From IMG/VR virus record IMGVR_UViG_3300009285_016375, positions 1 to 64,000 of that record: a stretch of 64,000 nucleotides of DNA, one strand, 5' to 3'. Source of the DNA: a virus. The position numbers and the translations under genes were made by a program. Below the pieces are notes generated by a model that was given only the letters and a program-made list of their open reading frames with translations, was not told the DNA's origin and did not search any database. This document shows positions 359-64,000 of this stretch, piece after piece (the stretch's first letter is position 1; each line of letters begins with the position of its first letter).

Positions 359-451
359 GGCTAACAAGGTCACTGGAGCGGACGGCTGGGGGCCGCTCCA
401 GTTTCAGGTTGATTGTCTGCGGCCAGCCGCCGCTCAGTTCTCACGTTCGGC
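359..451 (+). repeat. attC site
   Basis: GGCTAAC...GTTCGGC ends; imperfect inverted repeat CTGGAGCGGACGGCTGG / CCAGCCGCCGCTCAG with extrahelical bases. Confidence 0.85.
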
Positions 452-705
452 TTCTGTGGGCACGCGGCCTCGAATCCGAAAAATGAATGTTCCGTCATGT
501 CCCACCGGCACGCATTTCCGCAGATGATACACTCCTTCATCTCGTCGTTGATACAGCCACGCATCCGGCTGATTGTCGGCCCACCGATTGCCGCACAGTC
601 AGGATGTCGCTGGCCAGAAGCCGAACAAGACGCTGGAGCACAACGGCCCTTGTCCTCTCCGGTTATGGTGTCGCAGGTTGTCGGGAGTTTTGTTTCTTCG
701 TTCAT
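370..705 (-). CDS. hypothetical phage protein (CxxC) with attC-encoded N- and C-termini
   Basis: The ATG lies in the loop of attC 620-750 and overlaps the upstream TGA. The C-terminus is read through attC 359-451. Confidence 0.6.
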   Translation of the reverse strand: MNEETKLPTTCDTITGEDKGRCAPASCSASGQRHPDCAAIGGPTISRMRGCINDEMKECIICGNACRWDMTEHSFFGFEAACPQKPNVRTERRLAADNQPETGAAPSRPLQ

Positions 706-2959: not shown

Positions 2960-5476
2960 TCATGGATCCTTGTATCTGGGGTCGGGTGCGCAGGCGGGCT
3001 GGCTTCTGGCGACGCTCTCGAAGCGGGTGTAGCTGCGCAGGAAGGTGAGGGCGACGTCGCCGGTGGGGCCATTGCGTTGCTTGGCGAGGGCGAGCTGGAC
3101 GGGGGCGGCCTCCCGCTCGGGCACGCCGGCCTGGACTTCCTCGGTGTCGTCGGCCTTGGGCCTATAGAGCAGGCCCACCACGTCGCTGTCCTGTTCGAGT
3201 GCGCCGGACTCGCGCAGATCGGAGAGGCGCGGTGGGCGGCCTTCCCGTTCCAGGTCGCGATTGAGTTGACTGAGCACCAAGACTGGCGTGTTCAACTCTT
3301 TGGCCAGCGACTTGAGCCCGCGGGAAATCTCGGCCACTTCCTGCTGGCGGTTTTCGGTCTTGGGCGAGCTGCCGCGCAGCAGTTGCAGGTAATCCACAAT
3401 GAGGAGCTTGAGGCCGTGCTGCTGCCAGAGGCGGCGGGCCTTGGCCCGCAGTTGCATGATGGTCAAGTCCGAGGAGTCATCGATGAACAGGGGCGAGACG
3501 GCCAACTGGCCCGCCGCGCCGGTCAGCTTCGGAAAATCGCGCTCCGTAAGGAACCCCTGCCGGAGGTTGCGCAGGTTGACCCGCGCCCGCGAAGCCATCA
3601 TGCGCAAGACCAGCGACTCGGCGGTCATTTCCAGGCTGAACACGCCCACGGGCAGCTTGAGGTCCAGGGCCACGTGCTCGGCAATGTTCATGGCGAGCGC
3701 AGTGTTGTGCGTCACAATGAAATCATCCGTCACGTAAAGGTGGTCGGCGGAATCCAGCAGGAGGCACTGACACTCATCGTTTCCGTCGGGATGAATTTCC
3801 ACGATGCTCTTGTGCACATGGCGCGCATCAAGTCTCAGCTTGGAAAGATGTTTTGCTGAGGTGACTGGCACCACGGACGGGTCCTCAAACCATATTTGGC
3901 ACCGATAATTCACCAGCCCGATCTTTCGTGCTCCGCGGTGGGTGTAGGTCGGAATTCGGCTCGGCCCCTCCACGCAAATGCCCCCGAGCGAACGCACCAG
4001 GTATTTCACGTCCGCCATGAGTCGTTCGCTCGAAGTGCTGAACTCGATGGATGTCCCACCAACACATCCGTCCGTGTCCAAAAGGCCGCGCAGCAGTTCC
4101 AGCCGGTTGGGGATGGACGCATGTAAATACGACCCCGGAATGAATTTGCGTTCCGAGCGCACGTTCAACCCCAGACGCTCGATGGCCGTCATGGTTTCCG
4201 ATCGGTCGTTGTCCCGCTGCCGTCGTTTGATGCGGAGGCTCATTTCGTCAGCCACTACGGCGGTGTCATCGGGTGGAAGCAAGCCCATCAATTTCCGGTG
4301 CAAGTCGGCCTCGGGTTTGGAAAATACAACGCATCCATTAGCCAACGATCCGTCGCCGAGCAACGCCCCGCACAACCACGGGTGCAAGGGCAGGCCATCT
4401 CCCTGCGCAAACTCCACCGGGCGCACGGCCGGAACGACGTGATTTCGGTAGGCGCCGTCCGGACGCCGAATGGTGCGGTGAATTTCCGCGGTGGTTTTCA
4501 CGGAACCTAAAACACCGCGCCGCCGCTCATTTCTGGTTTGCGTGAACCAGAGGTGTTCGTCACAGCAGCGCGTGAATGTTCCGTCGGAGAAAATGACCTT
4601 GCTCACCTTTTTCTGCCCTTGAGGGAACACGCCCACCACTGGGTGCGGCCTGCCATCTGCGCCAATCACCATGGACCCAACAGCGATCTGGGACATGGCT
4701 ACATAGCCTTCCGGCGTGAGCACGCTCACATTCAGAGGTTGCGCCTTGCCCAGGCTCGGGCGGGCCGCGATGACGATCATTTCCCCGGCGTGCAGCCCGC
4801 TGGTGAGCTGGTCGAAATCGGGAAAGCCGGTGGCCAGGCCGGTCAGTGCGCCGCCGCGCGCGTGGGCTTGCTCGATGCTGTCCAGGGCCACGTTGACCAG
4901 GGTGCGAATGGGTCGGGCTGCGCTGGTGCCCCGCTGTTCGCCTACCTGGAGGATTTCGCTTTCGGCGCCGTCCAGGAGTTCCTCGGCGTGGCCGGCGTGT
5001 TCGTAGATGCGGCCCGTGATGCTGGTGCAGGCCCGCAGCAGGCGCCGGAGCAGGTATTTGTCCCAGACGATGTCGATGTAATAGCCGGCGTGGGCGGAGG
5101 AGGGGGCCACGTCCGGCAAAGGGGCCAGGAAAGCCATCCCGCCGACGGCTTCCCACTGCTGCTGGTCCTTCAGGCGCTGGGCCAGGGTGATGAGGTCGAT
5201 TGGGTGGCGCTGGTCGTAGAGGGTTTCCAGGGCAGCGTAGATGGCGCGATGGCGGAGGTCGTAGAAGGCCTCACGGCCCGCGAAGCGCTCGAGGCACAGC
5301 GGCAACACGTCTTGGGGGGCGAGCAGGATGCAGCTCAGCACGGCCTGTTCGGCTTCGAGGCTGTGCGGGGGCAGCCGATCCCTGAGCACACGGGCCCCAT
5401 CGGCTACCAGTTCAGCTAACAAGCTCACCGGAGCGGACCCGGCCCTTGCGTCTTCGTTGCAGTCGTTAGTCTTCAT
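2960..5476 (-). CDS. dnaB: replicative DNA helicase DnaB, intein-containing
   Basis: PPHSLEAEQAVL N-terminus, AARPSLGK/T Walker A split by an intein, FSLEM, IVDYLQL, LSQLNR, DLRESGALEQDSD, KQRNGPTG. Confidence 0.97.
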   Translation of the reverse strand: MKTNDCNEDARAGSAPVSLLAELVADGARVLRDRLPPHSLEAEQAVLSCILLAPQDVLPLCLERFAGREAFYDLRHRAIYAALETLYDQRHPIDLITLAQRLKDQQQWEAVGGMAFLAPLPDVAPSSAHAGYYIDIVWDKYLLRRLLRACTSITGRIYEHAGHAEELLDGAESEILQVGEQRGTSAARPIRTLVNVALDSIEQAHARGGALTGLATGFPDFDQLTSGLHAGEMIVIAARPSLGKAQPLNVSVLTPEGYVAMSQIAVGSMVIGADGRPHPVVGVFPQGQKKVSKVIFSDGTFTRCCDEHLWFTQTRNERRRGVLGSVKTTAEIHRTIRRPDGAYRNHVVPAVRPVEFAQGDGLPLHPWLCGALLGDGSLANGCVVFSKPEADLHRKLMGLLPPDDTAVVADEMSLRIKRRQRDNDRSETMTAIERLGLNVRSERKFIPGSYLHASIPNRLELLRGLLDTDGCVGGTSIEFSTSSERLMADVKYLVRSLGGICVEGPSRIPTYTHRGARKIGLVNYRCQIWFEDPSVVPVTSAKHLSKLRLDARHVHKSIVEIHPDGNDECQCLLLDSADHLYVTDDFIVTHNTALAMNIAEHVALDLKLPVGVFSLEMTAESLVLRMMASRARVNLRNLRQGFLTERDFPKLTGAAGQLAVSPLFIDDSSDLTIMQLRAKARRLWQQHGLKLLIVDYLQLLRGSSPKTENRQQEVAEISRGLKSLAKELNTPVLVLSQLNRDLEREGRPPRLSDLRESGALEQDSDVVGLLYRPKADDTEEVQAGVPEREAAPVQLALAKQRNGPTGDVALTFLRSYTRFESVARSQPACAPDPRYKDP
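3704..4744 (-). mobile_element. intein (347 aa, Ala1, class 3-type WCT signature) with LAGLIDADG homing endonuclease
   Basis: Starts AQPL after GK and ends IVTHN/T. Block B is EHLW and block F is ECQCLLL. LAGLIDADG motifs are GALLGDG and GLLDTDG. Confidence 0.92.
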
Positions 5477-5506: not shown

Positions 5507-5835
5507 GACTTCGGATCGTAGCACTCGCACCCGCCTGAGTGCTGCGGCCAGTTGTCGAAAATTCTTCCGTCCATTTCCGGGTTGTGACACGCCCAGCCTT
5601 TTTGCACGCCACAGACGCAGCGGCCTTTGATGCCTGCCGCTTTCTTTTGCTCATCCGTCGGCTGTGGCTCTGTGCCGCAGTGATAGTGGACTGGATGCAG
5701 ATGCTTGCAGTTGCAGCAGCATTGCACGAAGGTCGGGTCGTCTTTCAGTCCGCACCACGTCGCCGACCCGGCGGTTGGAGCTAACGGCCGCCCCGCTTCT
5801 GGCTTCGGTTGAGTCTCGGTTAATTCGGTCGTCAT
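5494..5835 (-). CDS. hypothetical Cys-rich phage protein
   Basis: CCCNCKH...CVC...CECY; ends in an attC right arm; its N-terminus is a degenerate attC left arm near 5762-5795. Confidence 0.6.
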   Translation of the reverse strand: MTTELTETQPKPEAGRPLAPTAGSATWCGLKDDPTFVQCCCNCKHLHPVHYHCGTEPQPTDEQKKAAGIKGRCVCGVQKGWACHNPEMDGRIFDNWPQHSGGCECYDPKSSND

Positions 5836-5861
5836 GTGTCCTTTCTGGCGTCACTGCTACA

Positions 5862-6212
5862 TCAGTTACCCATGACTTGCTTGAGCGCCCAGTATTCAGG
5901 GTTCACGAATCCGGCCACGATGTTGCTGACAGAGCAGCACAGTGCGATGAGCAGACAGAGCGTTCCGACGCCCCAGATTAGCCACGGCAGCGCGATGCTT
6001 CCACAGTTGTCGTTCCAGTCGCCGTCATCCTTGGTTTTATCACGCACGAGCCGGTAGCCCAAGACCATCACGGCAGCGTAGATGCAGAGCGCGATTGCTT
6101 CGGTCGTGCTGGTTATCGGCGCTTGTCGCACCAGCACCGCCCACAGGTGTTCGGCAGTCGTGCCGAGTTTCTCTGCGAGCTTTTCGATGAGTTGCTGTGT
6201 TTGTTCGTTCAT
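5862..6212 (-). CDS. hypothetical two-TM membrane protein
   Basis: LIEKLAEKLGTTAEHLW...two hydrophobic helices...NPEYWAL. Confidence 0.7.
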   Translation of the reverse strand: MNEQTQQLIEKLAEKLGTTAEHLWAVLVRQAPITSTTEAIALCIYAAVMVLGYRLVRDKTKDDGDWNDNCGSIALPWLIWGVGTLCLLIALCCSVSNIVAGFVNPEYWALKQVMGN

Positions 6213-51125: not shown

Positions 51126-54100
51126 ATGGGTTACAAGATTATTGAGCCGGAACCTGTTTTGGGTCGTTATCGGGTCATTGAGCCGGAAACGAACCGACCC
51201 CGTTATCGAGTCATCGAGCCGGATCAGCTTATCACGCCAATGGGGACGCCAGAGACCCCAGATGATTACAGCATCCCGGCTGAGGTGGGCAAGGGCATCG
51301 TGCGCGGGCTGGCGCGGGGGGTAGCCGCCGTGCCCAGGTTCGGCGGAGACGTGGCCGATGCGGTGCGCCGGTGGGTGGGATCAAGCCCCGAAGCGCCGGG
51401 GCCATTGGATACAGCCATCGGCGGGAGGAAGAGCGCGCTCAGCCTGCTGGGCGATGTGATTGACGAGACAGTGGCGGAAGCCTTGCCGGCCCGGAAACCG
51501 GAGAGCTTTTGGCTGGGGGTGGTGCCGGAAGCCATCGGGCAGGTGGTGCCAATGGCAGGGGCCGGGCTGGGGGCCGGGCTGGCCCGCAAGGGCGCTGGCC
51601 TGGCGGCGCAAATGAGCGCCGCCACCGCCGCCAGTACGGCCGTGGGTTTCATGGCTGAGTTCGATGACGCGTTCCAACGCGAGACCGAACGGCAACAGAA
51701 AGCCGGCGAGAACGATCCTGATTTGGCTTTTGTCAAGGCGCTGAACTACGGGACCATTGCCGCCGCTTTAGAAGGCAGGTTTGGGGCGGGACGCCTGGCC
51801 CGGAAATGGGTGGAACGGTTTGGCGGGGAGAGCATCAATGAGTTGGCGAAGCGCGGGGTGAGCGGGGGGATGATCGGAAGATTTCTGGGGCGCACGGCGG
51901 GAGACGCCGCCACCCAAGGACTGGAAGAAGCTGCCCAACGGCTGGCTCAGAACGTGATCATTGAAGGTCCTCTGTTACCGCCGGAAAAGTTGATGGAAGG
52001 GATCGGCACGGAGGGCGGGGCAGGCGCCGTGGTGGGAACGCTGTTGGGGTTTCCCGCCAACATACCCCGGCGGGGGCGCATACCGGTGCAGAGGATGCCG
52101 TCACGTTTGCCGCCAGAAAGCCTGGCACCGGGGCACGTGCAGAGCGAAGCACTGGTCGAACTGGGCGTTGGCCCGGCGCCAGATGAGCGCGGACGAATTC
52201 CCATCACGACCGGAAACCAGTATGCCATTCAAAAGCCAAGCCCAGCGGCGCTACCTGTGGGCCAAACACCCCAAGCTGGCGCGCCGGTGGAGCCAGACGA
52301 AGAAACGACGGGGAAGGATACCGGTGGAGTAGCGCCGGTCTGGACGCCGCAGGCTACCGCAGCAGCGCGCCAGGCACTCCGGGGCAACCTGCAAGGCCGC
52401 ACGGTCAATGTGCCGCAGGAACAGTGGGCCGCTCCTTCCGTGCATTTGCAGTATTTGTTTGGGGCCCAGGCTCCTACCTGGAACGATTTGGTGGCCGCTG
52501 GTGTGCTGGAACTCACCGATCCAGCGGCCCCCGCCGCCCCCGGCGATTTGGGGGTGCGCTTGAAAAGAGAGCAGCCAGCCAACGCACCCACAGAACCCGC
52601 ACCCGCCGCTTCACCCAGCCTGAAAGTTTGGAAAGCTGGCCAGACCGGAATCGGTAGAGGTGGAATGCAATATTTCGCGCTTTCAAAAGAGCTTGCGGAC
52701 AAATTCTCAGAAGGGGGCGAGTTTGGGCGACCGGGCGCTGTGGTTACGGAGACTCAATTGCCAGAAGGCTCAATGGTGTTTGATTGGAAGGCGTCAACTC
52801 CAGAAGAGAGAATCGAATTGAAGGCTTCTTCCTGGATTGAGCCAGACGGCTATCCGAACTGGCACTGGTTTGAAAACACTCCCGGCATTCAGGCGAAGCT
52901 CCGAGAGCTTGGATACAATGGGATCAAACTTTCAGAGGGAGAATCCAACGGCCTATCCATAGCCATTTTACCGGAATCCAAACCCGCCGCCCCCGCCGCT
53001 GTGAAGGCAGGCGAACTGCAAGGGGCGGTTCCCCCGGAGGCCCAGCCGCCGGAGTTGATGACGCCGGATTATTCGGCGCCCAGCGTTACACAAGATTTTT
53101 CCCCCGCTCCGGCCCCGGCAACTGCAAATGTAACGCAACTGAGCGACGCGACCATGCGCCCATCTGCCCCGCGCACAGCGGACCCAGGCACAGGGCCAAC
53201 ACCGAGCCAACAGGCCGCGGCGACCGGGGCGGGGGTGATTTTACACAATGAGCAACCTGAAATAGAGCTACAGCTCGATGAACTGGCCCAGTCCATCCCC
53301 TTCGATCCGGCCGCGACCATCGCCGGCCCGGTCTGGCAGGATGTGTCGGGCCAGGATTTCAGCAGCGCGGAATCACAGCGCACCTTACTGGCGGGGGCCC
53401 GGGCCGAGGGCGTGGGCGGAGGCGGCAGCCGCCAAGCCACTCAGCAGTCACACCGCTTGGTAGTTTTGACTAACCGGCAGGACGGTTCGCGCCACGCTGC
53501 CAGCGTTTACGGGTCGCACCGCCGAGTGTTTGCCACAGACCCGGCCACGGGCCAAGGCGTCCCGCTGGATACGTTGCTGCCGAAGTGGCAACCCACGCAC
53601 TGGTTTTATTCGGGCCCGGCGCGCAATAGGTATCGGCTGGCTCTGTCGCCCGCTCACTTCGCGGCGTTGCGGGCTCAAGGCGAGGCGCACCAGCAAAAGC
53701 TGGACAGCTATGAGGCGCCCAGCGAGGTGACTGGACCGGCCGTGCCCAGCGAGGAAGGGGAGGAAGGGGAGGAAGGGGAAGGTTTGCCGGCCAAGCCCAA
53801 GCCCAGTGCGCGGAAACCAATCGCAGAGGAAACAAAGCTGGGGCAGGTAGTGGCCAGCGCGGACTTGACTTTCACCCTGGCCCAGGCAGAGGAATTGCAT
53901 GAGTTGCTGGCCTGGCGCCCTGGGGACAGCGAACAGGATATTCGGGACGCGCTGGCGGACAACGCCACGGCGCGGCCAGTGAAAAACCTGTTGATAGCCG
54001 TGTCCGACAAGTTTTACCGCAATGAATACAAAGCCCTGGCAGCCATCACTGACCCCGCAGCCAAACCCGCAGCCAAAGACGCCTTTGACGCCACCGTGGC

Positions 54101-57100
54101 GGACCGGGCGGGCGGCCTCGTCGCGGGACTATTGGGAGCAACGGATGGCCGACCAGGTTTCGCGTCAGCGCTTGCAGGAGCACTGGCGCCGACCGAAACG
54201 CAACGGCCCACCCCAGAGCGGGCTGCGCCGGGGGCGGATACCAGTCAGCCAGAGGTAGCTCCCGGCACGCCGCAACCGCTCACGGCTCAGGAGACCGCCG
54301 AGGCCGCCCGGCTGGGCGTGCGGGAGGTAACGGTCCAAACTGAGGCGGAGGCGCTGGCTGCCATCAATGGGCAACGCCAAGCTTCCGGGCAGCCAACCCA
54401 AGCAGCCCAGGGCACCGAGGGGGCACTGGCGTTCTACGACCACGGGGTCATTTACTATGTGCGCGGGCAATTGGACGATGACGCCCTGTTTCGCGAGGTG
54501 CGCGCCGAAGAGATCGGACACCACATTCTGTCCGGGCCACAAGCCCAAGAGGTGATCGGGCAGATAGCCGATGATCCGGCCTTCGGTGCCGAGATGGAAG
54601 GCATGGCGCAGAGGTATCCCCGGTTTGAGGGCGAGAGCGAAGGGGCTTACCGGCTGCGTTTGGCCAATGAGCTTTTGGCCCAGTCACGCCGGACGGACCG
54701 GAATCTGTTCCAGCGGTTGCTGGACTGGATTGTCGAGCGCCTGGCGCAATGGCCGGGCATGGGGGAGTGGATCAAGGGCAGCGCGTCCAATCGGCAGGGG
54801 ATTCTCCGGGCCTTGATGCGGCGGGCCGAAGCGGGGTTCAGTGCGGCGGGACCGACGGCGCAGGCGATGGCTGCTACTATCAGCCCGCAACGGCAGGCCG
54901 AGATCATCGCCGCCCAGGCCGAGGCGGACGCGGCCCGCGCGGGGGGCAGGGCCCAGGTGCCTGCGCGGGAAGCCACTTTGTTCCACGCGGCCCAAGTGCT
55001 GCGGCGCGGGGCGGAAGCCACCTTGCAGCTCTGGCGCCAGGCCGTGACCCGGCTGGACACCTTGCGGTATCACAACAAAGAGTATGTCCGGGCCAGGAAA
55101 ACGCTGGAGGCGCTGCGCAGTTTCCTGCAGACCGAGTATCAGAAGCTGAGCCAGGGCGACAGGCTGGTCTTAAACCTGCCAGAAAAGGTGCCGGGGATTC
55201 TGGATGGTGAATTTGTAAATGCGCTGCAAACATTAGGTGTGGGCACGCGCTCAGCAGAGGCGGGAGCCGGCGAGTTCGTGATACCAGCGGATACCGAGGA
55301 GACGGCTGGCCGATTGAGCAGGCCCCCTGGACTCGGGGCGCTGGACGCAAACCGCATCCGGGCCCTACAGGCTGAGGTGCAGACCGAAAACCAGGCCCGC
55401 GGGTATGCCGCCCTGCTGCAGGAACAGGCCCGGTTGCGGGTGTGGCGGCGCTGGGGCACCCAGTTCGATTTGGGCGAGGAGTATCAGCAGGCCTGGGTGA
55501 GCCGGCAACGGGCAGTGGAAGAGCGCATGAAACGGATCCGCCAGGGCAACCCGGAAGCGGCCCGGCGCGGCCAGCAGATGTCTCGGGACCGGATCACGCG
55601 CGGGGAAGTGGGAGAGTTTGACCAGGCCAGCGAAGAAACCTGGCTGTCCCGGTTGGGAGAGTGGCAGGCGCAACAGCGGGCTTACGAGTCCGGCCCGGTG
55701 CGGCGGGCCTTCCGGCAAGGGCTGGAAGGGGCGCGGGCCTTGGCCGATCAATGGCAGACGCGGCTGGCCACGTTTGAGGAGGCGATGGCGGATCCGACTA
55801 TGCCGGAGGACGCCCGGCGCCGGCTGGCCGGGGAGGTGTTGGCCAGTTGGCGGCAGATGCAGGCTGAGCAGCAGCGCTTTGAAAACCTGTATGCCGGGCG
55901 GGCAGGCTTGTTGAAACAGATGCGCCAGCTCGAGGATCAGTTGGCCTCAGCCAAGATCACCCAAGGCGAGGCGGAAGGATTGATCGGCCGGGCCATAGCC
56001 GCCCTGAGCAGCGAAGCCGAGCGCGCTTGGGCGGTGATCCCCACCGGGCTGGAGCGGGTGTTGCTGGACAACGCCGAGGCCATTCGCTTGGCCGCCCGGC
56101 GGTTGGCTAAGTTGCCCGCCTGGCAGGGCACCCGCAACGCGCGGGCGGTGTTCGAGCGCTTGACCGAGCAGGGCCGGATTCTGCGGCAGGAACCCATGGG
56201 CCGGCCGGTGATGACCGGAGAACCTTTGGTGTTCGCCGCTGAGCTGGGGCTCTCCGAGGAGGCTTACACGGCCATGCTGTGGGCGCTCGAACATTCGGAG
56301 AGTTTTCGGGATGCCGTGGAAACGCTGGCCGAACTGGCGGATCAAAAGCTGGCCGAGGTGCCGGTGGTGCCGGTGCAGAGAATTGCCGAGTTGCTGGAGG
56401 CGGGCCAGGCAGAGCAGGCGCAAGCGGCTTTCGAGCAGTTGCGCCGGAAGCTGGGCAATCAAGCGGTGGCCGCCGAAAAGGCCCAGGCGCCCCTGACGCG
56501 CCAGTTGCTGAAACTGGCCGTGCAAGTGCGGGCGTTGGACCTGGGGCGCCAACTGTTCCAGGCTGTGCTGGGCGAGCCGGGCCAGCCTCAGGCGGAACTG
56601 ACCCGCCTGGTGCGGCAGGTGATCGAGCTGACTCTGGATCATCCGCCCATGATCGAGGCCAACGGGGACGGGACGACCTACCACGCCTTTCCCGGGCAGC
56701 CGGCGGTGACGGTGCGGGCGGCCAGTTGGCTGAGCCCAACCAAAACGCAGCGGTCTGTCAGCCAGTGGTATGAGCAGGCCGCAGAGTATTTGGCCGGGTT
56801 CGAGGCGGCGGAACTGGCGCAGGCGGCTAATCCGGGTCAACCGACCGCCGAGCAGCAGGGCTACGATTACGGGGTGGTGCTGGGCTTGCGGGAGGCGCTG
56901 GAACAGCAGGACAGCGACACCAACCATGCCTTGTTGCTGGATGAGGATCGTTACCAGATGTCGCGCTGGCAGGGTTGGAGCCAGAAGTTCAGTTACGGCC
57001 AGCAGATTTGGACCACCATCACCCATGCGGCCGGGCTGGGCCGCGGAGCGCTGCACCGCTGGGCCTTGGCGTTGGGGCGCGGCCAGGCCATCGGTTCGCG

Positions 57101-60100
57101 GTTGCTGAAGCGGGATTTTCGGGGGCGGCACGAGGCGCGCACCGCCGCCTTAGTGAGCCACCCGGAGTGCGAAAACAATCTGGAGCGTTACCAGTTGCTG
57201 GTGATGAACCCGATGGGGCATTTGGGCCGGCAATGGGACAGTCCTTTGAGGGTCGGTTACGCGCTGGACAGCGGTTCGGTGGTGACCCGGGAAGACCTGG
57301 CCTTCCTGCGTTTGACCGAGCGCTTTGGCCAGGCGGTGCGACGGGAGATCACCGAGCAGGAAGCCGGCGAGCCGGGCCAGCGCTATCTGCGCGGGGGCGT
57401 GGAGCGCCAGCAGGGCGGTCAAGTGGTGAGCCGCAGCCTGAGTCTGGGCGTGGGCGACTACGCGCTGGCCCGCGTGCTGAACTGGGGCGGTTTTCTGAAC
57501 GCGCTCCGGGAACTGGCCGCGGCCTATCACGGCCCGGACCACAAGCTGCAAAGCGTGGGGGCGGAGACCAATTTGCGTTTGACTCAGGAACCCGCGGCCC
57601 TGGAAGCGGCGGCCGGCTGGCGGGTGGCGGCCTTTTGGAACGAGCACCTGGCCGATCTGGTGCGGCACGTGAGCGATGCCGGGCGGACCGACAGCGCGGT
57701 GTCCCGGCAGCCGCCTCTGATGCGGGCCGCCCTGGAGTTGCGGCGGCGTTGGGAAGTGGGCGAAACGGGCCGCCCGGCTGATTTGCAGGAACTGGTGGAA
57801 CAGTTGACGGCCGCCTTGCCGGTCAATTTCGATCCGGGTGTGCCGCGCGCCCGCTATGTGCGGGAGCAACTTTTGGCGGAACTGGCCGAGTATGGGCGCG
57901 GGGCGCTGGCGGCCGAGCAGGAAGTGGTGGCAGAAGTGAAGCGGGCCAGCGCCGAGGCGGAGTATGACCCGGTGCGCGTGTTCAAGAGCGAGTTCACCCA
58001 GGAAGCGGCCCGGCTGCGCCTGCCCTCGCGCTGGTATAACTACGGGGCAGTGCGGGAAGGGGAGTTCCATGACCTGGTGGCCCGGGCCTTGAGCGAGCGG
58101 GCCATCCAGTTCCGGGCGGCCTTGGACCGGACCGTGGATGGCATGCAAGCCCTGCGGGCTCAGGCGCGGGACGTGAGCCAGCCGGTGGCCTTTGAGTCTG
58201 CGCAATATCCCGATCTGCACAATTTCAGCCGGGCGTTGGCCAACTTGGAACGGCTCCAAGACCAAATGAAAGCCGCCGGGACCGCGCGGTTTCGGGAGCC
58301 GGGTTTTTGGCAGGAATTGTTTGGGTTCTTCCAGGGCGGGCTGTTGTCCGGGGTGGACGTGGGTTTTGGGAACGTGATTCTGAACGCGGGTTTTGCCGGC
58401 TGGGTGCTGGCGCACTTGCCGGGGCAAACCCGGCGGATGACGCTGGGCCGGGAGCTCGCCGGCTTGTTCCGGGGCGGGCTGGTGCTGGTGAATAATGTGC
58501 TGGAGCATACCGAGACAGGGCGCGCGCTGCGCCGCTTGTGGCCGGCCAGCCTGCGCGGGTTTTTGGCCGAGCAAGGGGCTTTGCTGGAGGAGGTGCAGCG
58601 GCTGGGCTTTTCGCACCGAGAACCGTTTCTGGCCGAGGCGCGGCGTTTGTGGCAACAGGCGCTTGAGTTTCGCGGCACGGAAGAGCAGCAGGAAGCCACG
58701 GCCTGGAGCCAGGCGGGCCGGCGCGTGCGGGCGGTGCTGCGGCTGGGATCAGCCGCCTTGCGCAAGGTGGGAGCCACCGCCTTGGGCGACTTGGCCACCA
58801 ACGCCACTCTGGTCGGGCAGGCCGGCATGGTGGCGGATGCCGTGCGGTCGATGGCCGGGCGTTACCAGGCGCGGGATTTGAGCCAACCCTTTAACGCGGC
58901 TGATCCTCTCTGGCAGGTCAGCGAAGCCGATGTGCCACACGCTTGGACGGCCCAAAGGAGCCAGCGCCTGGCTCTGTTGCGCCTGATTTTCGAGCGGGCC
59001 GACGTGAGTTTAGAGCGGGTGCTGTATCGCTACTCCAAGGCCGCTCAGGCCGCCGCGCGCACGGGCGGGGAAAGCCCCGAAGTCTTCACGCCCGAGGAGC
59101 ACGAGAAACTCAAGTTTGCCCTGCTGGCGTTGCTGAACCAACCCACCAGTGTGAGCCGGCAGTTCAAGGCGCAGTACGACCGGACGTTCAAGTTTTTGGT
59201 GACGTTCCAAGGTTGGGTGGCAAACGCCGCCAATACCTACGCCGAACTGTATCAGCAGACCGGGCGCACCCGGTCGCTGCCGCCGGCCGCGCGGGCCGCC
59301 ACGCATTTGCTGCCGTTGCTGGGCACCACGCTGCTCTTTGCGCTGGTGTTTGGCAGCATCAACCAGTGGTGGCGGCGCAAGGTGAAGAAGCATCTTTACG
59401 GCATTGACACCCAGGTGGCCAGCATTTTGGAACGGGACACTTGGTCCAGCCCCGGCACGGCGTTCCGGGGCGCGGCCGTGGGCACGCTGTCGGCCTTGCC
59501 GATTGCCGGCGATCTGGCGCTGAACTGGCTCAACGCCACCGTGGGCGGGCGGGGGTTTGATCCCGCCTCACGGGTGGTGGGCTTGAACCTGATGAGCAGC
59601 ATATTCTCAGCGTTCCGGGCCGCGGCCGGCCAGCCCTGGCCAGATAAGTGGATGATCCTGACCGATTTCATGGTGCGCCCGCACTTCGGGCTGAGCGGGC
59701 CGCTGCTCTATGCCGGCAGTCCGCGCTACCGCGGGCAGCGGGAGGTCTCGAATGTGCGCCGGTTGATCGAGGACAAGGCCCACACGGTGTTGGGCATCGA
59801 ACGGCGCCGGAGCGGCCAGCGCTGGGCCGGCAGCGATTTATCCCCGACCTACGCGATGCGGATGAAGATGGCCAGCGCGGCGGTGCGGGAGGATTGGGAG
59901 GAGTTCGGGCAGCAAAGCCAGCGGCTGGTGGAGTGGCACCGCCAAGCGGGGGCCGCCGAGCCGGCAAAAGCCGCCTTGCGCGATTTCCAGGCCATGCACC
60001 CGGTGGCGCGCGGGGCCGGACGCAAGCTGGAGGCCGAGGAATTTGCCCGGATCAGCAGCGCCCTGAGCGCCAGCCAGCGCCAGCAGGTGGACCACGCCAG

Positions 60101-60497
60101 GCAGGCCTGGGCGCAAGGCGAGACCCTCTTGGGCGCCGCTCAACCACGCAGCGCCATCCATGAAGCCCGCCCGGCCGGCCGGGCGGGCGGAGGAGGAGGG
60201 GGAACAGGAACGGGCGGGCAGGGCTGGGACGGCGTGAAACGGGTGCCAGCGCTGAGCGGGCAGAGCGGGCGCGGGCGGCGATTTGGACGCTTGGCCAGTC
60301 CCGTGCCGCGGGTGTTATCGACCCGGAGCGCGGTGTCCGTGGCCAGCCGGGTGGGCCGATCCTCCCGGCGTTGGGCGGGCCGGGTGCCGCCGATGAGCCT
60401 GAAATCACCCCGCCTGCGCGCGCCCAAAATGCGGCGTGCGCGCGGGGCGCGGCTGCCGAGATGGCCGCGGGGCACGGGCCGGGTGCGGATTTATTGA
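51126..60497 (+). CDS. giant (3123 aa) ejection / polyvalent protein
   Basis: Uninterrupted ORF; hydrophobic G/A-rich N-terminus with GLEEAAQ, an ART-like insert, an EEIGHH metallopeptidase-like motif, and a helical C-terminus. Confidence 0.75.
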   Translation: MGYKIIEPEPVLGRYRVIEPETNRPRYRVIEPDQLITPMGTPETPDDYSIPAEVGKGIVRGLARGVAAVPRFGGDVADAVRRWVGSSPEAPGPLDTAIGGRKSALSLLGDVIDETVAEALPARKPESFWLGVVPEAIGQVVPMAGAGLGAGLARKGAGLAAQMSAATAASTAVGFMAEFDDAFQRETERQQKAGENDPDLAFVKALNYGTIAAALEGRFGAGRLARKWVERFGGESINELAKRGVSGGMIGRFLGRTAGDAATQGLEEAAQRLAQNVIIEGPLLPPEKLMEGIGTEGGAGAVVGTLLGFPANIPRRGRIPVQRMPSRLPPESLAPGHVQSEALVELGVGPAPDERGRIPITTGNQYAIQKPSPAALPVGQTPQAGAPVEPDEETTGKDTGGVAPVWTPQATAAARQALRGNLQGRTVNVPQEQWAAPSVHLQYLFGAQAPTWNDLVAAGVLELTDPAAPAAPGDLGVRLKREQPANAPTEPAPAASPSLKVWKAGQTGIGRGGMQYFALSKELADKFSEGGEFGRPGAVVTETQLPEGSMVFDWKASTPEERIELKASSWIEPDGYPNWHWFENTPGIQAKLRELGYNGIKLSEGESNGLSIAILPESKPAAPAAVKAGELQGAVPPEAQPPELMTPDYSAPSVTQDFSPAPAPATANVTQLSDATMRPSAPRTADPGTGPTPSQQAAATGAGVILHNEQPEIELQLDELAQSIPFDPAATIAGPVWQDVSGQDFSSAESQRTLLAGARAEGVGGGGSRQATQQSHRLVVLTNRQDGSRHAASVYGSHRRVFATDPATGQGVPLDTLLPKWQPTHWFYSGPARNRYRLALSPAHFAALRAQGEAHQQKLDSYEAPSEVTGPAVPSEEGEEGEEGEGLPAKPKPSARKPIAEETKLGQVVASADLTFTLAQAEELHELLAWRPGDSEQDIRDALADNATARPVKNLLIAVSDKFYRNEYKALAAITDPAAKPAAKDAFDATVADRAGGLVAGLLGATDGRPGFASALAGALAPTETQRPTPERAAPGADTSQPEVAPGTPQPLTAQETAEAARLGVREVTVQTEAEALAAINGQRQASGQPTQAAQGTEGALAFYDHGVIYYVRGQLDDDALFREVRAEEIGHHILSGPQAQEVIGQIADDPAFGAEMEGMAQRYPRFEGESEGAYRLRLANELLAQSRRTDRNLFQRLLDWIVERLAQWPGMGEWIKGSASNRQGILRALMRRAEAGFSAAGPTAQAMAATISPQRQAEIIAAQAEADAARAGGRAQVPAREATLFHAAQVLRRGAEATLQLWRQAVTRLDTLRYHNKEYVRARKTLEALRSFLQTEYQKLSQGDRLVLNLPEKVPGILDGEFVNALQTLGVGTRSAEAGAGEFVIPADTEETAGRLSRPPGLGALDANRIRALQAEVQTENQARGYAALLQEQARLRVWRRWGTQFDLGEEYQQAWVSRQRAVEERMKRIRQGNPEAARRGQQMSRDRITRGEVGEFDQASEETWLSRLGEWQAQQRAYESGPVRRAFRQGLEGARALADQWQTRLATFEEAMADPTMPEDARRRLAGEVLASWRQMQAEQQRFENLYAGRAGLLKQMRQLEDQLASAKITQGEAEGLIGRAIAALSSEAERAWAVIPTGLERVLLDNAEAIRLAARRLAKLPAWQGTRNARAVFERLTEQGRILRQEPMGRPVMTGEPLVFAAELGLSEEAYTAMLWALEHSESFRDAVETLAELADQKLAEVPVVPVQRIAELLEAGQAEQAQAAFEQLRRKLGNQAVAAEKAQAPLTRQLLKLAVQVRALDLGRQLFQAVLGEPGQPQAELTRLVRQVIELTLDHPPMIEANGDGTTYHAFPGQPAVTVRAASWLSPTKTQRSVSQWYEQAAEYLAGFEAAELAQAANPGQPTAEQQGYDYGVVLGLREALEQQDSDTNHALLLDEDRYQMSRWQGWSQKFSYGQQIWTTITHAAGLGRGALHRWALALGRGQAIGSRLLKRDFRGRHEARTAALVSHPECENNLERYQLLVMNPMGHLGRQWDSPLRVGYALDSGSVVTREDLAFLRLTERFGQAVRREITEQEAGEPGQRYLRGGVERQQGGQVVSRSLSLGVGDYALARVLNWGGFLNALRELAAAYHGPDHKLQSVGAETNLRLTQEPAALEAAAGWRVAAFWNEHLADLVRHVSDAGRTDSAVSRQPPLMRAALELRRRWEVGETGRPADLQELVEQLTAALPVNFDPGVPRARYVREQLLAELAEYGRGALAAEQEVVAEVKRASAEAEYDPVRVFKSEFTQEAARLRLPSRWYNYGAVREGEFHDLVARALSERAIQFRAALDRTVDGMQALRAQARDVSQPVAFESAQYPDLHNFSRALANLERLQDQMKAAGTARFREPGFWQELFGFFQGGLLSGVDVGFGNVILNAGFAGWVLAHLPGQTRRMTLGRELAGLFRGGLVLVNNVLEHTETGRALRRLWPASLRGFLAEQGALLEEVQRLGFSHREPFLAEARRLWQQALEFRGTEEQQEATAWSQAGRRVRAVLRLGSAALRKVGATALGDLATNATLVGQAGMVADAVRSMAGRYQARDLSQPFNAADPLWQVSEADVPHAWTAQRSQRLALLRLIFERADVSLERVLYRYSKAAQAAARTGGESPEVFTPEEHEKLKFALLALLNQPTSVSRQFKAQYDRTFKFLVTFQGWVANAANTYAELYQQTGRTRSLPPAARAATHLLPLLGTTLLFALVFGSINQWWRRKVKKHLYGIDTQVASILERDTWSSPGTAFRGAAVGTLSALPIAGDLALNWLNATVGGRGFDPASRVVGLNLMSSIFSAFRAAAGQPWPDKWMILTDFMVRPHFGLSGPLLYAGSPRYRGQREVSNVRRLIEDKAHTVLGIERRRSGQRWAGSDLSPTYAMRMKMASAAVREDWEEFGQQSQRLVEWHRQAGAAEPAKAALRDFQAMHPVARGAGRKLEAEEFARISSALSASQRQQVDHARQAWAQGETLLGAAQPRSAIHEARPAGRAGGGGGGTGTGGQGWDGVKRVPALSGQSGRGRRFGRLASPVPRVLSTRSAVSVASRVGRSSRRWAGRVPPMSLKSPRLRAPKMRRARGARLPRWPRGTGRVRIY

Positions 60498-60542: not shown

Positions 60543-60947
60543 TTGTCGAACGACGTCATAGAGGTTCATGGTTCGAGGGTGCAGGTGACGCGTCAGGCGC
60601 TGGCCGCCGCCCTGGCCGAGGAACTGGAACGGGCGCTGGCGGGGTATCGGCCCTGCGCGTTGCTGCCCGCTTTCGTCTGGCGCCGCATTGCCAAGGCGGC
60701 GGTGCGCGCGCTTTTGCAACTGATCACGGAGTTCATTGGCCGCGGCCAGCCCATCGCGCTGCCGGGGTTCGGCTCCTGGCGCTTGATGCGGCGGGCGGCG
60801 CATCTGGGCACCTGCCCGGCGGCTTGGGGGCCGCACGGCCACCCCGCGCAGCGCGCCGAGCGCTATCTGGTGCCAGCCCACACCAAGGTGGTGTGGCGGC
60901 CGGCAGAGCGGCTGCGGCAGCGGTTGTTTCGGGTACAGGTGGAGTGA
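60543..60947 (+). CDS. HU/IHF-like DNA-binding protein
   Basis: GQPIALPGFGSW....RAAHLG...VPAHTKVVWRPAERLR matches the HU/IHF signature. The start codon is uncertain. Confidence 0.7.
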   Translation: MSNDVIEVHGSRVQVTRQALAAALAEELERALAGYRPCALLPAFVWRRIAKAAVRALLQLITEFIGRGQPIALPGFGSWRLMRRAAHLGTCPAAWGPHGHPAQRAERYLVPAHTKVVWRPAERLRQRLFRVQVE

Positions 60948-60975: not shown

Positions 60976-61300
60976 GCCACAGCATTCGCCAAGTTGTTTG
61001 GTTGCTGCGAGGCGGCGCTCGTGACCGAGCCGAGCCGATGGCAGGCGCCCACAGCAATAAAGTCGCTTGGTTGCTGCGAGCAGTTCGGCGCCAGTAAGGC
61101 GGATGCCGCGCAGCGTCCCCACAGCATTCACCAAGTTGTTTGGTTGCTGCGAGGACGGTTTCCGCTGAAATGTCATGGCCCAGCAGGTCAGCCCACAGCA
61201 TTCGCCAAGTTGTTTGGTTGCTGCGAGGACGGAGCGGGCCTCGTCCACTTCGGGGTTCATTTGCCCACAGCATTCGCCAAGTTGTTTGGTTGCTGCGAGG
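60976..61300 (-). CRISPR. CRISPR mini-array, 5 repeats / 4 spacers
   Basis: Core CCACAGCATTCGCCAAGTTGTTTGGTTGCTGCGAG at 60977, 61049 (32-nt variant), 61119, 61193 and 61265, separated by unique 37-39 nt intervals. The strand is inferred from G-U pairing and the adjacent effector. Confidence 0.92.
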
Positions 61301-61419
61301 GCGGTGCCTGGGCAGGCTGTATCCTCGCGCTTGCAAACCGCGTTCCGCGAGTGCCTGGGCCGGCAAGCGTGCCCAACCAGACTCGCGCTGCGCTTTGTGG
61401 TAGCGCAAAGAATTGATTA
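61301..61419 (-). ncRNA. putative structured leader / tracrRNA-like scaffold
   Basis: Hairpins CGCGAGT...ACTCGCG (with inner TGGGC/GCCCA) and TGCGCT/AGCGCA, plus a short anti-repeat-like segment ATCCTCGCGC. Confidence 0.4.
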
Positions 61420-62661
61420 TCACGGCTCGCGAGCGGTGTCAAGGCTTTCCACCGCACCGGCGCACTCGCAAGCCATCCCAAACTCACGCAGCTTGTTGGC
61501 CAGCATGACCTGCAACTCGTGCCAGGGAAACTCAGGCAGATAACCGCCTTGAGTTTCATCATAGACAACCGTGTTGACGCCTTGGCGCTGAGCGAACTTG
61601 GCCAAGGCTGAGCAGGATTGCTGCATGAAAGATCGGACCCGACGATGATGCTTGGCCACTTGCGCCTGGCGGTATTCTCCCAACCGCGGCGGTTCGCCCA
61701 AGCGGACCTCGTATTTTGAGTCGTCGGAAAGCCGGTCCAACTGCCGGCGATGAGCAGCGATCCAGCGGCGGACGTGATCAGCGTGCAAGCGCCACGGTTC
61801 CCGCCCTTCCACCTCGGCGATCCAGAAAGCATCCGGCGCCCTGCTGAGCACCAGCCGGCGCTGAACCGGGGCCGGGCGCTGCGGTTTGGGCAGCCACGCC
61901 ACCAGCTTGACCATCACGTCGTAGCACTGGCGGGCGCCGCCACCGGCTGCCCGGTCTGGCAAGCCAGGCCGATGGGTGTTGCCAGAGACCCTTTTGCGGT
62001 AGAGGGCCAATTCGCCAGGCACGGCTTGGCCACTGACAATCTGCTCGAAGGCACCCAGTTGGCGGCGGAAGCCTGCCCCACCCCGCAACCGCAAACTGAT
62101 GCGCTCGCCGCCCAAACGCACTGAGACCACGGGCACGCGTTCGGTGTCCGAGAGCCAGCGCGCTTGCCAGGAGGCGTTGTGGGCGGGGTAGGGAACCGGG
62201 TAACGGAACCAGGGCAGGGTGGCGCTGCCCGACCAGATGGTGGCCCAGCGGGCGGAGTTGTATTTCTGTTGGGCCATTCGGGAAACGGCCGCCGCGGCTT
62301 GGCTTTCCATGTCCGGCCGCCGCTCACGAGCGATCTGATAGACGTTCAGCTTGGGGGCGGGCGGGAGCTTGGTCAGGCTGGGTGAGCGCACCACGTCGGC
62401 CTTGGCCAAGGCGGTCAGCACGGTGTTGGCCACTTCGGTGGCTTGAGCCCAGGCCGCGCCCAAGCGGGCGCGGAAGGCCGGCCAGTCCAGGCCGATGGGT
62501 GAAGCCACCGGGAAGGTGACGGCCCGCAGAATGTAGGCATGGCGCCAACAGGTCTGGCACCAAGGCTGGTCCTGATGGCGTTTCCAGCCGGCGGGCACGC
62601 GCTGGCGCCCGGCTTTGGTGGGTTTGGCGGCGGCTTCCCGGCCGCACAGGTGGCATTTCAT
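61420..62661 (-). CDS. nuclease-dead Cas12f/TnpB-family RNA-guided effector with N-terminal CxxC..CxxC
   Basis: Colinear similarity to AsCas12f1 as recalled (SPIGLDWPAF vs KPLDLDWKEF; IWSGSATLPWFR vs ILRGDMSIPSYK; QIVSG vs RILSG; GVNTVVYDE vs GCGTIQMED; WHELQVMLANK..EFGM vs YYDLQQKIIYK..EAGI). The RuvC-I GIDLG motif is absent and the TNB zinc finger and RuvC-III are missing. Confidence 0.8.
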   Translation of the reverse strand: MKCHLCGREAAAKPTKAGRQRVPAGWKRHQDQPWCQTCWRHAYILRAVTFPVASPIGLDWPAFRARLGAAWAQATEVANTVLTALAKADVVRSPSLTKLPPAPKLNVYQIARERRPDMESQAAAAVSRMAQQKYNSARWATIWSGSATLPWFRYPVPYPAHNASWQARWLSDTERVPVVSVRLGGERISLRLRGGAGFRRQLGAFEQIVSGQAVPGELALYRKRVSGNTHRPGLPDRAAGGGARQCYDVMVKLVAWLPKPQRPAPVQRRLVLSRAPDAFWIAEVEGREPWRLHADHVRRWIAAHRRQLDRLSDDSKYEVRLGEPPRLGEYRQAQVAKHHRRVRSFMQQSCSALAKFAQRQGVNTVVYDETQGGYLPEFPWHELQVMLANKLREFGMACECAGAVESLDTAREP

Positions 62662-63602
62662 AGCAGATGTCCGGTGAGTTTCTGCCGGCCTTCTTGGGCC
62701 AGGGGGGCGCGCACGTAATCCAGGCTCTGCCGCGGGCTGGCATGGCCCACTAAAGCAGCAATCTGTTCCGGGCTCAAGCCCGCCGCGCGGCAGTGCTCAA
62801 TAAAGGTGGCCCGCAGATCGTGAATGTTCAGATGCAACAGGCCCAGTTCGGCGCGCAGTGCCCGGAATTGCAGGCGCAAGGCTTTGGCCGGCACGCGCCG
62901 CACCCGTTCCGGGAAGACGAAACGCTCGCCGTTGGCCCCGTTGGCCCGCGGGATGGCTTGCAGGATAACCGCCAGAGGCGGGGCCAATGGAATGACCACG
63001 CGCTGGTGCTGCCGTTTCTTGGTCCAGACCGTGATCGTCCCAGCCTCCAGATCCAGGCTGTCCCATTCCAGGCATTGGACGTCCGAGGGGAAGCGCAAGC
63101 CCGCGTGGACGCAGAGGGCCAAGGCCGCCTGCCAAAATTCCCAGCGTTCCAGCCGCTGCCCGGCTTGGGCGCACTGGCCGGCGGCTTGCTGGGCGCGAGC
63201 GCGATCTATCCGGGCCTGGATGGCGGTGAAGAGGGCCTGCACCTGGGCCCGGCTGTAGGTGCCACGGGGGCGACTTTCGCGCAGGGCATGGGGCAGGGCC
63301 TCCAGGCGCAACTTGCGGAAGCGGGCGGGGTTGCCGTGCAGGAGGCCGGCGTCGCCGAGAAAATCGCACCAGTGTTGCAAGGCGGCCTTGCAGATCTGGC
63401 GGGTGGCCGCTTTCCAGGGCAGGGCGGGGTCCTCCAGGAAAGCGCGCACGCTGGGTTTTGTGATGTCCGAGAGCCGGGACGGCTGGGTGCGAGCCAGATA
63501 CCAGCCGACGTAGTTGGTGTAGATTTGGGCGGTGGAGGCGCGCACGTCGCCTTCCTGTTGCAGGTGGTCGGTCCAGCGTGCTAGGGCGTTCAGGGGTTTC
63601 AT
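62658..63602 (-). CDS. tyrosine recombinase/integrase
   Basis: N-terminal SAM-like domain (STAQIY); catalytic AGLR, K, HDLRATF, LVGH, DY. The start was chosen at MKPLNAL. Confidence 0.92.
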   Translation of the reverse strand: MKPLNALARWTDHLQQEGDVRASTAQIYTNYVGWYLARTQPSRLSDITKPSVRAFLEDPALPWKAATRQICKAALQHWCDFLGDAGLLHGNPARFRKLRLEALPHALRESRPRGTYSRAQVQALFTAIQARIDRARAQQAAGQCAQAGQRLERWEFWQAALALCVHAGLRFPSDVQCLEWDSLDLEAGTITVWTKKRQHQRVVIPLAPPLAVILQAIPRANGANGERFVFPERVRRVPAKALRLQFRALRAELGLLHLNIHDLRATFIEHCRAAGLSPEQIAALVGHASPRQSLDYVRAPLAQEGRQKLTGHLL

Positions 63603-63603
63603 C

Positions 63604-63629
63604 GCGGGTGCTGAGCTGGGTCGTTCGGC
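63604..63629 (+). repeat. attC right half-site or attI-like first core site, abutting the recombinase start
   Basis: GTGCTGAGCTGGGTC-GTTCGGC, with no left arm visible. Confidence 0.6.
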
Positions 63630-63630
63630 G

Positions 63631-63888
63631 TCAGATAATCCTCGCGCAGGCTTCGGACTCCGCGAGTGCGACAGCATCGTCAAGCGAGTCAGGTGCGGGA
63701 AAGACACCTACTCTCAGGAAGTTACCTTCCCGCGCGTACCAGTGTCCGGTTTTGACGGTTTTGCCGTCCGCAGGCTCCCAGCCGGGGAACGTATTGCGAA
63801 TCGCATCACGCGGGGTCATTGCCGCAATGGTCTTGCTTTCTTGCACATGTCCGATCCGGTAGTCTTGCAGTTGCACTATGTATGTCAT
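63631..63888 (-). CDS. hypothetical protein (antisense cassette gene)
   Basis: The ORF fills the interval between the core site at 63623 and the attC at 63907. Confidence 0.55.
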   Translation of the reverse strand: MTYIVQLQDYRIGHVQESKTIAAMTPRDAIRNTFPGWEPADGKTVKTGHWYAREGNFLRVGVFPAPDSLDDAVALAESEACARII

Positions 63889-63906
63889 ATTGTCTTTCCA
63901 TTGCCC

Positions 63907-63994
63907 GCCAAACAAGACACTGGAGCGGACGGCGGGGGGCCGCTTCAGCGAGCGGGGCGTTACGGGCGCCGCCGCTCAGTTCGGGTCGTTCGGC
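63907..63994 (+). repeat. attC site
   Basis: GCCAAAC...GTTCGGC; CTGGAGCGGACGGCG / CGCCGCCGCTCAG; the left arm is nearly identical to that of 1336-1427. Confidence 0.85.
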
Positions 63995-64000
63995 GTCACA

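Follow-up and report, generated by a model that had tools for sequence, protein, structure and literature searches.

A CRISPR-associated, probably nuclease-dead Cas12f derivative of a phage, from a large family and encoded next to a phage integrase

What role might a Cas12f-like protein that has lost parts of its catalytic domain play in a phage, when its gene overlaps that of a tyrosine recombinase and is followed by a CRISPR array? The question is raised by a locus at positions 60976-63707 of the window, by which we mean positions 1-64,000 of the IMG/VR provirus record IMGVR_UViG_3300009285_016375. The whole record is 74,507 bp long, is rated 98% complete and carries tail-spike and virion-protein matches. 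An initial annotation, made from the letters of the window, had proposed that the recombinase and the Cas12f-like effector act together in RNA-guided recombination, or that the effector acts as a programmable repressor. We find that the phage carries in this locus one representative of a large CRISPR-associated family derived from Cas12f, whose members are most probably nuclease-inactive, and that the link to a recombinase is not conserved in this family. The role that we favor, with a probability of about 0.55, is that of an RNA-guided protein that binds DNA but does not cleave it, and so represses or blocks its target. The features concerned are as follows.

62658..63602, minus strand: tyrosine recombinase (phage integrase), 314 amino acids (aa) from ATG (Pfam PF00589, phrog_1)
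61420..62661, minus strand: Cas12f-like effector, 413 aa, RuvC truncated, dCas12f-like (profile, AlphaFold2, Foldseek)
62548..62655, minus strand: putative N-terminal zinc ribbon, CxxC (residues 3-6) ... CxxC (residues 35-38) (family alignment)
61840..61842, minus strand: Arg274 codon, aligned with the RuvC-I catalytic Asp of Cas12f (hidden Markov model (HMM) alignment to OsCas12f)
61555..61560, minus strand: Asp368-Glu369 codons, Asp368 being aligned with the RuvC-II Glu (HMM alignment)
61301..61407, minus strand: conserved putative guide-RNA scaffold (tracr/omega-like), fused directly to repeat 1 (covariation, covariance model)
60976..61300, minus strand: CRISPR mini-array of five repeats and four spacers (repeat search, hairpin covariation)

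All of these features follow one another on the minus strand as recombinase, effector, scaffold leader and array. The recombinase is listed as an open reading frame (ORF) of 349 aa starting with GTG (62658-63707, minus strand), and its form in the protein collection is the 314-aa one that starts at the ATG at 63602. The stop codon of the recombinase overlaps the ATG of the effector in a 4-nucleotide (nt) ATGA at 62658-62661. About 119 nt separate the effector stop (61420) from the first repeat (61300), of which ~107 nt are conserved scaffold. The five 37-nt hairpin repeats end in GGG (61264-61300, 61192-61228, 61118-61154, 61048-61080 and 60976-61012), are spaced by 69-74 nt and enclose four spacers, each 35-37 nt long; repeat four is degenerate, with a 3-nt deletion. 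Six-frame searches of the whole 74.5-kb record found no Cas1, TniQ, sigma70_r2 or Cas12f TNB domain. The ORF list, repeat coordinates and gene searches thus bear out what the initial annotation had described, namely a single minus-strand unit with an ATGA overlap, a structured leader of about 120 nt, an array of five repeats and four spacers, and no cas1, Tn7 genes or sigma factor. The arrangement of gene, scaffold and repeat recurs in dozens of independent loci, so that it is more than chance.

We asked what kind of protein the effector is. It has no match in Pfam, NCBIfam or PHROGs, PADLOC gives a weak Cas12f match (E = 0.0035), and a word search returned 76 relatives of the same length, all of them unnamed. 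An exhaustive search yielded 884 clusters at 50% identity, 404 of them with E < 1e-30. A profile of 46 homologs matches Cas12f structures in the PDB (9nzq, E = 1.6e-8; 9i8y, 5.6e-8; AsCas12f, 2e-5), and also the nuclease-deactivated Cas12f 9n9c over WED/REC only (E = 1.4e-4). The AlphaFold2 model has a predicted local distance difference test (pLDDT) score of 92.8 and a predicted template-modeling (pTM) score of 0.82. Foldseek places AsCas12f first (E = 3.9e-17, TM 0.57), followed by OsCas12f and dCas12f 9n9c (1.6e-14), with TnpB, Cas12k, Cas12g and Cas12m at lower ranks, and the neighbors of the effector in the ESM Atlas are Cas12f1-like/TnpB clusters. Taken together, these results make the assignment sound: the effector is modeled with the Cas12f/TnpB fold, including WED, REC and a RuvC RNase-H core, in agreement with the earlier call of a Cas12f/TnpB-type protein. 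The conservation of the sequence over the 884 clusters argues for a selected function rather than decay. Members of the family occur in phages and sporadically in bacterial metagenome-assembled genomes (MAGs). A tblastn search with the effector against GenBank phages gave no match, and the presence of the family in 2 of 301 sampled Planctomycetota genomes indicates that it is patchy and mobile.

It is also evident that the catalytic domain is incomplete across the family, for which we aligned 206 members. When the family profile is aligned with OsCas12f (GVDMG against lvrtd), Arg274 of the effector, within LVLSRAP (270-276), stands at the place of the RuvC-I Asp. Arg is found in this column in 112 of the 206 members, the rest having S, K, T, Q or H, and no acidic residue is among the commonest ones. 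The RuvC-II Glu (MED against ydd) falls on Asp368 within VVYDE (365-369); here Asp occupies position 368 in 153 members and the next position, 369, in 150. The model of the effector ends after beta-5 of the RNase-H core, and the residues following the last strand never exceed 58 among the 206 members (median 15), which indicates that the RuvC-III helix and the TNB finger are missing family-wide. PF07282 (TNB) has no match in the effector or in any frame of the phage. Instead of an intact RuvC D-E-D triad, the protein therefore has R274, D368 and no RuvC-III. The four N-terminal Cys residues are kept in 170-180 of the 206 members, most of the others being cut at the N-terminus. Asp368-Asp369, Asp295-His296 and Asp314 are strongly conserved, with acidic or His residues in 150-198 members. 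The alignment confirms four readings made by eye from the single protein, namely the replacement of the RuvC-I acidic motif by LVLSRAP, the VYDE at the RuvC-II position, the end of the protein before TNB and RuvC-III, and the extra N-terminal CHLC...CQTC, which proves to be a conserved four-Cys ribbon.

We then sought to address whether the leader between the gene and the array is an RNA element. Sixty-seven loci of relatives were collected from viral contigs, genomes and metagenomes by pattern-based retrieval with a 12-sequence alignment. In many of them, arrays of 2-10 repeats of 36-37 nt begin 112-130 nt past the stop codon. Among 15 loci, the repeat hairpin shows compensatory changes in 9 of 11 pairs, and 89% of the alignment cells are paired, compared with 37-44% when the pairing is slid (0 of 500 shuffles). 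The scaffold, aligned from 25 loci, shows compensatory changes in 21 of 27 pairs, with 89% of cells paired compared with 35-39% when slid (0 of 500 shuffles). It contains a 5-bp hairpin with an ACCRC loop; an AGCGCGA that pairs with a later CUCGCG; an enclosed hairpin with a ACGCUUGCCG loop; the motifs CGCUCGCGGAACGC and GGGAUAU; and a third hairpin, followed by GCCC and the repeat. A covariance model built from this alignment (R2) finds the window element at 61264-61407 on the minus strand with 104 bits as the sole copy in the phage. In nearly all loci with enough flank, the same model finds the element downstream of the gene and on its strand, including more than 20 loci left out of model building. 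The leader folded as a single sequence is no more stable than its shuffles (z = -0.45), so that what speaks for a structure is the covariation. The scaffold matches no family in Rfam. Judged from aligned sequences, the leader is thus not a generic one; it reads as a conserved, covarying guide-RNA scaffold joined to repeat 1.

Array loci make up approximately half of those examined; in the rest, the scaffold is followed by a lone repeat hairpin and one guide. The single-guide form is seen in L013, L014, L015, L017, L021, L024 and L025; the closest relatives of the window protein and several MAG loci have it. In some loci the full scaffold is present two or three times, or arrays flank the gene on both sides. 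Double scaffold copies are seen in L026 (4322-4465, plus strand, and 5732-5875, minus strand), L035 (4546-4689 and 6228-6371) and L056 (4152-4295 and 7134-7277); L016, L046, L040 and L027 are also among the loci with extra scaffolds, both-side arrays or inverted arrays.

The closest description in the literature is that of Hoffmann et al. 2026 in Nature (PMC13472631). These authors characterized dCas12f-sigma-E, in which the dCas12f of Bacteroidota is C-terminally truncated, and in one sentence and an Extended Data figure noted a distinct dCas12f cluster near CRISPR arrays, in which covarying guide RNAs lie upstream of the arrays and the guides in some cases match promoters of efflux operons. 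A Cas12f branch that lost activity along with RuvC-III had been reported by Altae-Tran et al. 2023 (PMC10691335). The window system resembles dCas12f (PMC13472631; 9n9c/9n9m) in its Cas12f fold, in a C-terminal truncation that removes part of RuvC, and in a covarying scaffold directly downstream that ends in a repeat-like hairpin with a 3′ guide. The continuum from single guides to arrays described for dCas12f loci (PMC13472631; PMC10691335) matches the loci of the present family, and some relatives lie beside RND efflux genes as in the Extended Data example. The differences are that the window system is phage-borne and has a true multi-spacer array, that no rpoE/sigma-E partner is present in the 74.5-kb phage or among the relatives' neighbors, and that the protein is only weakly similar to 9n9c in sequence, is ~50 aa longer and has the N-terminal four-Cys ribbon. 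Compared by description only, the window family fits the array cluster of Hoffmann et al. in architecture and partly in context. Systems of this kind have already been glimpsed bioinformatically (Hoffmann et al. 2026; Altae-Tran et al. 2023), and the family is barely studied; in our literature search, no publication dealt with members carried by phages or with the N-terminal zinc ribbon, and none reported experiments on array-associated dCas12f.

Among type V-F Cas12f proteins, AsCas12f (8j12), OsCas12f (9nzq) and Un1Cas12f1 (7c7l) are the best structural and profile matches, with the same WED-REC-RuvC order, an array downstream of the gene and a long structured guide scaffold. Unlike them, the window effector has Arg at the RuvC-I Asp and neither a TNB zinc finger nor RuvC-III, and there is no separate anti-repeat trans-activating CRISPR RNA, the scaffold being contiguous with repeat 1.

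The genomic context of the relatives supplies further comparisons. In four unrelated phage contigs (L003, L005, L008 and L010), the cassette has the gene of the large terminase (gpA type) on one side and that of the lambda-type portal on the other, which looks like a recurrent moron insertion site. In MAG loci it lies beside RND/MacB efflux or TonB-receptor genes; in the single-guide loci L014 (992-5309), L017 (618-5426) and L013 (7534-10227), genes for RND (AcrB/HlyD), MacB or a TonB-dependent receptor adjoin it. Hoffmann et al. mention efflux promoters as dCas12f targets, and here it is the single-guide MAG loci that efflux genes adjoin; no guide match was found within 6 kb in these three loci. 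A sub-group has an extra gene of 195-270 aa between the effector and the scaffold or array (L007 4279-4959, L010 3686-4495, L012 4006-4689, L055 1152-1961 and L056 6457-7044), with no Pfam family and one weak ParB_N match; its product is a candidate partner protein. No family is conserved across the loci among the neighbors, which include no sigma factor and no recurrent transposase family.

How might such a locus work? Most likely, the scaffold, a repeat hairpin and a spacer would form one long RNA that carries the guide at the 3′ end, comparable to TnpB omega-RNAs and dCas12f guide RNAs, and the effector would bind it. The protein keeps WED and REC together with the bridge helix, and its RNase-H core extends as far as beta-5, but the RuvC-I Asp and the TNB/RuvC-III tail are lost, which suggests, by analogy with Cas12f, that complementary DNA would be bound without being cut. 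The complex could then be a repressor or roadblock that is programmed against competing mobile elements or against genes of the host.

There are precedents for silencing without cutting in Cas12m and TldR (PMC10442227; 10.1101/2023.11.30.569447). TldR, some of which is prophage-encoded, is likewise a compact, RuvC-inactivated protein of the TnpB lineage that occurs on mobile elements and uses a 3′-guide RNA, and its outcome, repression, is the one that we propose by analogy for the window effector. It differs in that its single guide is fixed on a host promoter (fliC, oppA) and that it lacks a CRISPR array, whereas the arrays of the window family vary and gave no nearby target. Cas12m (V-M) and Cas12k (V-K) share with the window effector type V membership, arrays without adaptation genes, and DNA binding without double-strand cleavage, which is predicted here. 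Both are much larger, belong to other TnpB branches and are weaker in Foldseek (E = 1e-6 to 1e-8), and Cas12k works with Tn7-like genes whereas the window phage has no TniQ.

Three points weigh against repression or blocking. The first is the lack of targets. The initial annotation had proposed to compare the spacers with host and virome data, and no protospacer was found in the viral and phage sequences searched: exact searches of IMG/VR with the 24-mers proximal to the protospacer-adjacent motif (PAM) failed for all four spacers, the array has no match among GenBank phages, and no self-match exceeds 15 nt in the own 74.5-kb record. Nor is there a true protospacer for 78 spacers from 14 related arrays compared with all loci. 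Among the first guides of 24 loci, none matches at 16/20 nt or more within 6 kb except one 16/20 match in L056, and the guides of three single-guide MAG loci have only chance-level matches in their own whole genomes, for example in a conserved coding motif, so that a convincing own-genome target is missing for the single-guide relatives as well. The second point is that the conserved Asp368-Asp369, Asp295-His296 and Asp314 may leave an unconventional active or metal site. The third, by analogy, is that the truncated RuvC of the sigma-E system docks a partner, so that recruitment rather than blocking would be possible. The conserved residues are the reason for keeping partner docking and nuclease activity as minority readings.

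Two candidate matches were rejected. An apparent inter-phage protospacer, from L029 to L026, was the same spacer in an inverted duplicate array of a relative, and a 22-nt self-match in L010 and L055 was a palindromic terminator-like sequence at the array end.

The recruiting role, which we regard as tentative and rather unlikely, would have the truncated RuvC or the N-terminal zinc ribbon dock a host or phage partner, such as RNA polymerase or a sigma factor, a nuclease or a helicase, and so activate transcription or some other activity at the guided site. It is suggested by the dCas12f-sigma-E system, where Fta dCas12f binds DNA as an asymmetric dimer and the C-terminal domain of the sigma factor binds and complements the truncated RuvC (10.1101/2025.06.10.658880). 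The DD pair, the DH pair and the four-Cys ribbon are conserved without an assigned role, and the extra gene of the sub-group stands where a partner might be encoded. On the other hand, the phage has no sigma factor, and the lack of a neighbor family conserved across loci argues against a dedicated partner.

It is less probable still, and in our view distinctly doubtful, that the effector is a nuclease after all. A rearranged site, made up of D368/D369 with D295/H296 or D314, or a partner acting in trans would restore cleavage, and the locus would be a compact interference system. The conservation of these residues favors it, rearranged RuvC sites have been documented in TnpB clades (PMC10691335), and a host protein activates one miniature Cas12 from a phage (10.1101/2025.01.20.633832). 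However, the RuvC-I position is basic in most members, and the RuvC-III helix and TNB are absent in all 206 and not encoded elsewhere in the phage.

RNA-guided recombination fares worse, and we consider it very improbable that the spacers, through the dead effector, set the sites at which the neighboring tyrosine recombinase integrates or excises. That the upstream protein is a recombinase is clear. It matches Phage_integrase (PF00589, E = 5.5e-14, 52.7 bits over a cut-off of 27.1) and the phrog_1 integrase (E = 1.2e-34), and the six catalytic residues that the initial annotation had reported as an intact R-K-H-R-H-Y can be read in its translation: R (GLR), K (TKK), H-x-x-R (HDLR), H (GHAS) and Y (LDYV). 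In favor of coupling, the two genes share a strand and the ATGA overlap in the window phage. The statement that no dead type V or TnpB protein was known beside a tyrosine recombinase is outdated, inactivated TnpBs having been found with phage-type tyrosine recombinases on at least three occasions (PMC10691335). Those cases resemble the window in an inactivated gene of the TnpB/Cas12f lineage with a phage-type integrase upstream; they differ in that the association here is seen only in the window among the sampled loci and is no family trait.

The neighbors of the relatives speak against coupling. ORFs were called with a simple picker weighted by third-position GC content (GC3) and then scanned with Pfam. 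Phage_integrase had no match in the nearest ORFs on either side of the gene, 62 of them upstream (36 loci with upstream sequence) and 67 downstream; of another 49 ORFs that are 230-560 aa long and lie within 5-6 kb, two are integrases. A tblastn search with the window integrase was negative. The window integrase has no close relatives in IMG/VR or the protein collection and none that travel with the effector, and an iterative HMM search seeded with it recovered only itself and was without power. The recombinase link is therefore not conserved in the family. Moreover, the window integrase gives the only PF00589 match in the 74.5-kb record, being the sole tyrosine recombinase of a temperate phage and required anyway for lysogeny, and four different spacers are hard to reconcile with one integration site. 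Since the homologs usually lack a recombinase, only a binding or repressing role survives of the two that had been offered, and a functional unit of recombinase and effector is not supported. We likewise give very little credence to a version restricted to this phage lineage, in which the translationally coupled integrase would be under array-guide control, with the dead Cas12f-like protein directing or licensing recombination. If it were true, the coupled integrase would be a site-specific recombinase that occurs in nature and is programmed by RNA.

Most simply, the locus can be read as a mobile effector cassette that has inserted next to an integrase belonging to the phage. The upstream recombinase would then be an ordinary integrase, and the cassette would lie in the lysogeny region and be co-transcribed. 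In sum, the initial annotation stands in its effector, dead-nuclease, array and leader calls, through fold, alignment and covariation, and falls in guided recombination, the integrase not being conserved. Least probable of all is a decaying relic, a broken Cas12f gene with a leftover functionless array, to which the degenerate repeat (61048-61080) and the lack of protospacers might point, but the ORF is intact, hundreds of clusters have kept its truncated architecture, and conserved motifs go with a covarying RNA partner.

With guided recombination unsupported, the value of the locus lies in the family and not in the integrase coupling. Each natural nuclease-dead RNA-guided protein (Cas12k, Cas12m, TldR and dCas12f-sigma-E) has uncovered a new use of DNA targeting. 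The present family is large, compact (~410 aa) and often phage-borne, has multi-spacer arrays and a scaffold of ~145 nt including the repeat hairpin, and is not represented in Pfam, PHROGs, Rfam or GenBank phages. If its members are programmable repressors, phages would use silencing akin to CRISPR interference against rivals or hosts, and the effector would offer a natural scaffold for DNA binding that is very small and comes with its guide design at hand.

Other elements of the phage were also recorded. Five imperfect palindromes of ~90 nt, in the same orientation and 80-96% identical, lie between small ORFs at both ends of the record (window 363-454, 1340-1427 and 63901-63999; record 64215-64302 and 65671-65790, or L002 6216-6303 and 7672-7791). 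The nearest copy is ~200-300 nt upstream of the integrase gene. These elements could be recombination sites (attC-like), promoters or terminators, or elements similar to repetitive extragenic palindromic (REP) sequences. If they are recombination sites, the integrase gains a substrate unrelated to the effector.

Convergent with the array is a gene for an HU/IHF-like DNA-binding protein (window 60543-60947, plus strand; PF00216, E = 1.8e-7), whose end is 29 nt from the last repeat. Just before it ends a single ORF of 3123 aa (window 51126-60497, plus strand), probably a giant virion or ejected protein. A DnaB-type replicative helicase (window 2960-5476, minus strand) is split by a LAGLIDADG domain, probably an intein. 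Past the window end lies a pair made up of a MoxR-like AAA ATPase and a DUF2201 metallopeptidase/VWA protein (record 67595-70166, minus strand; L002 9596-12167).

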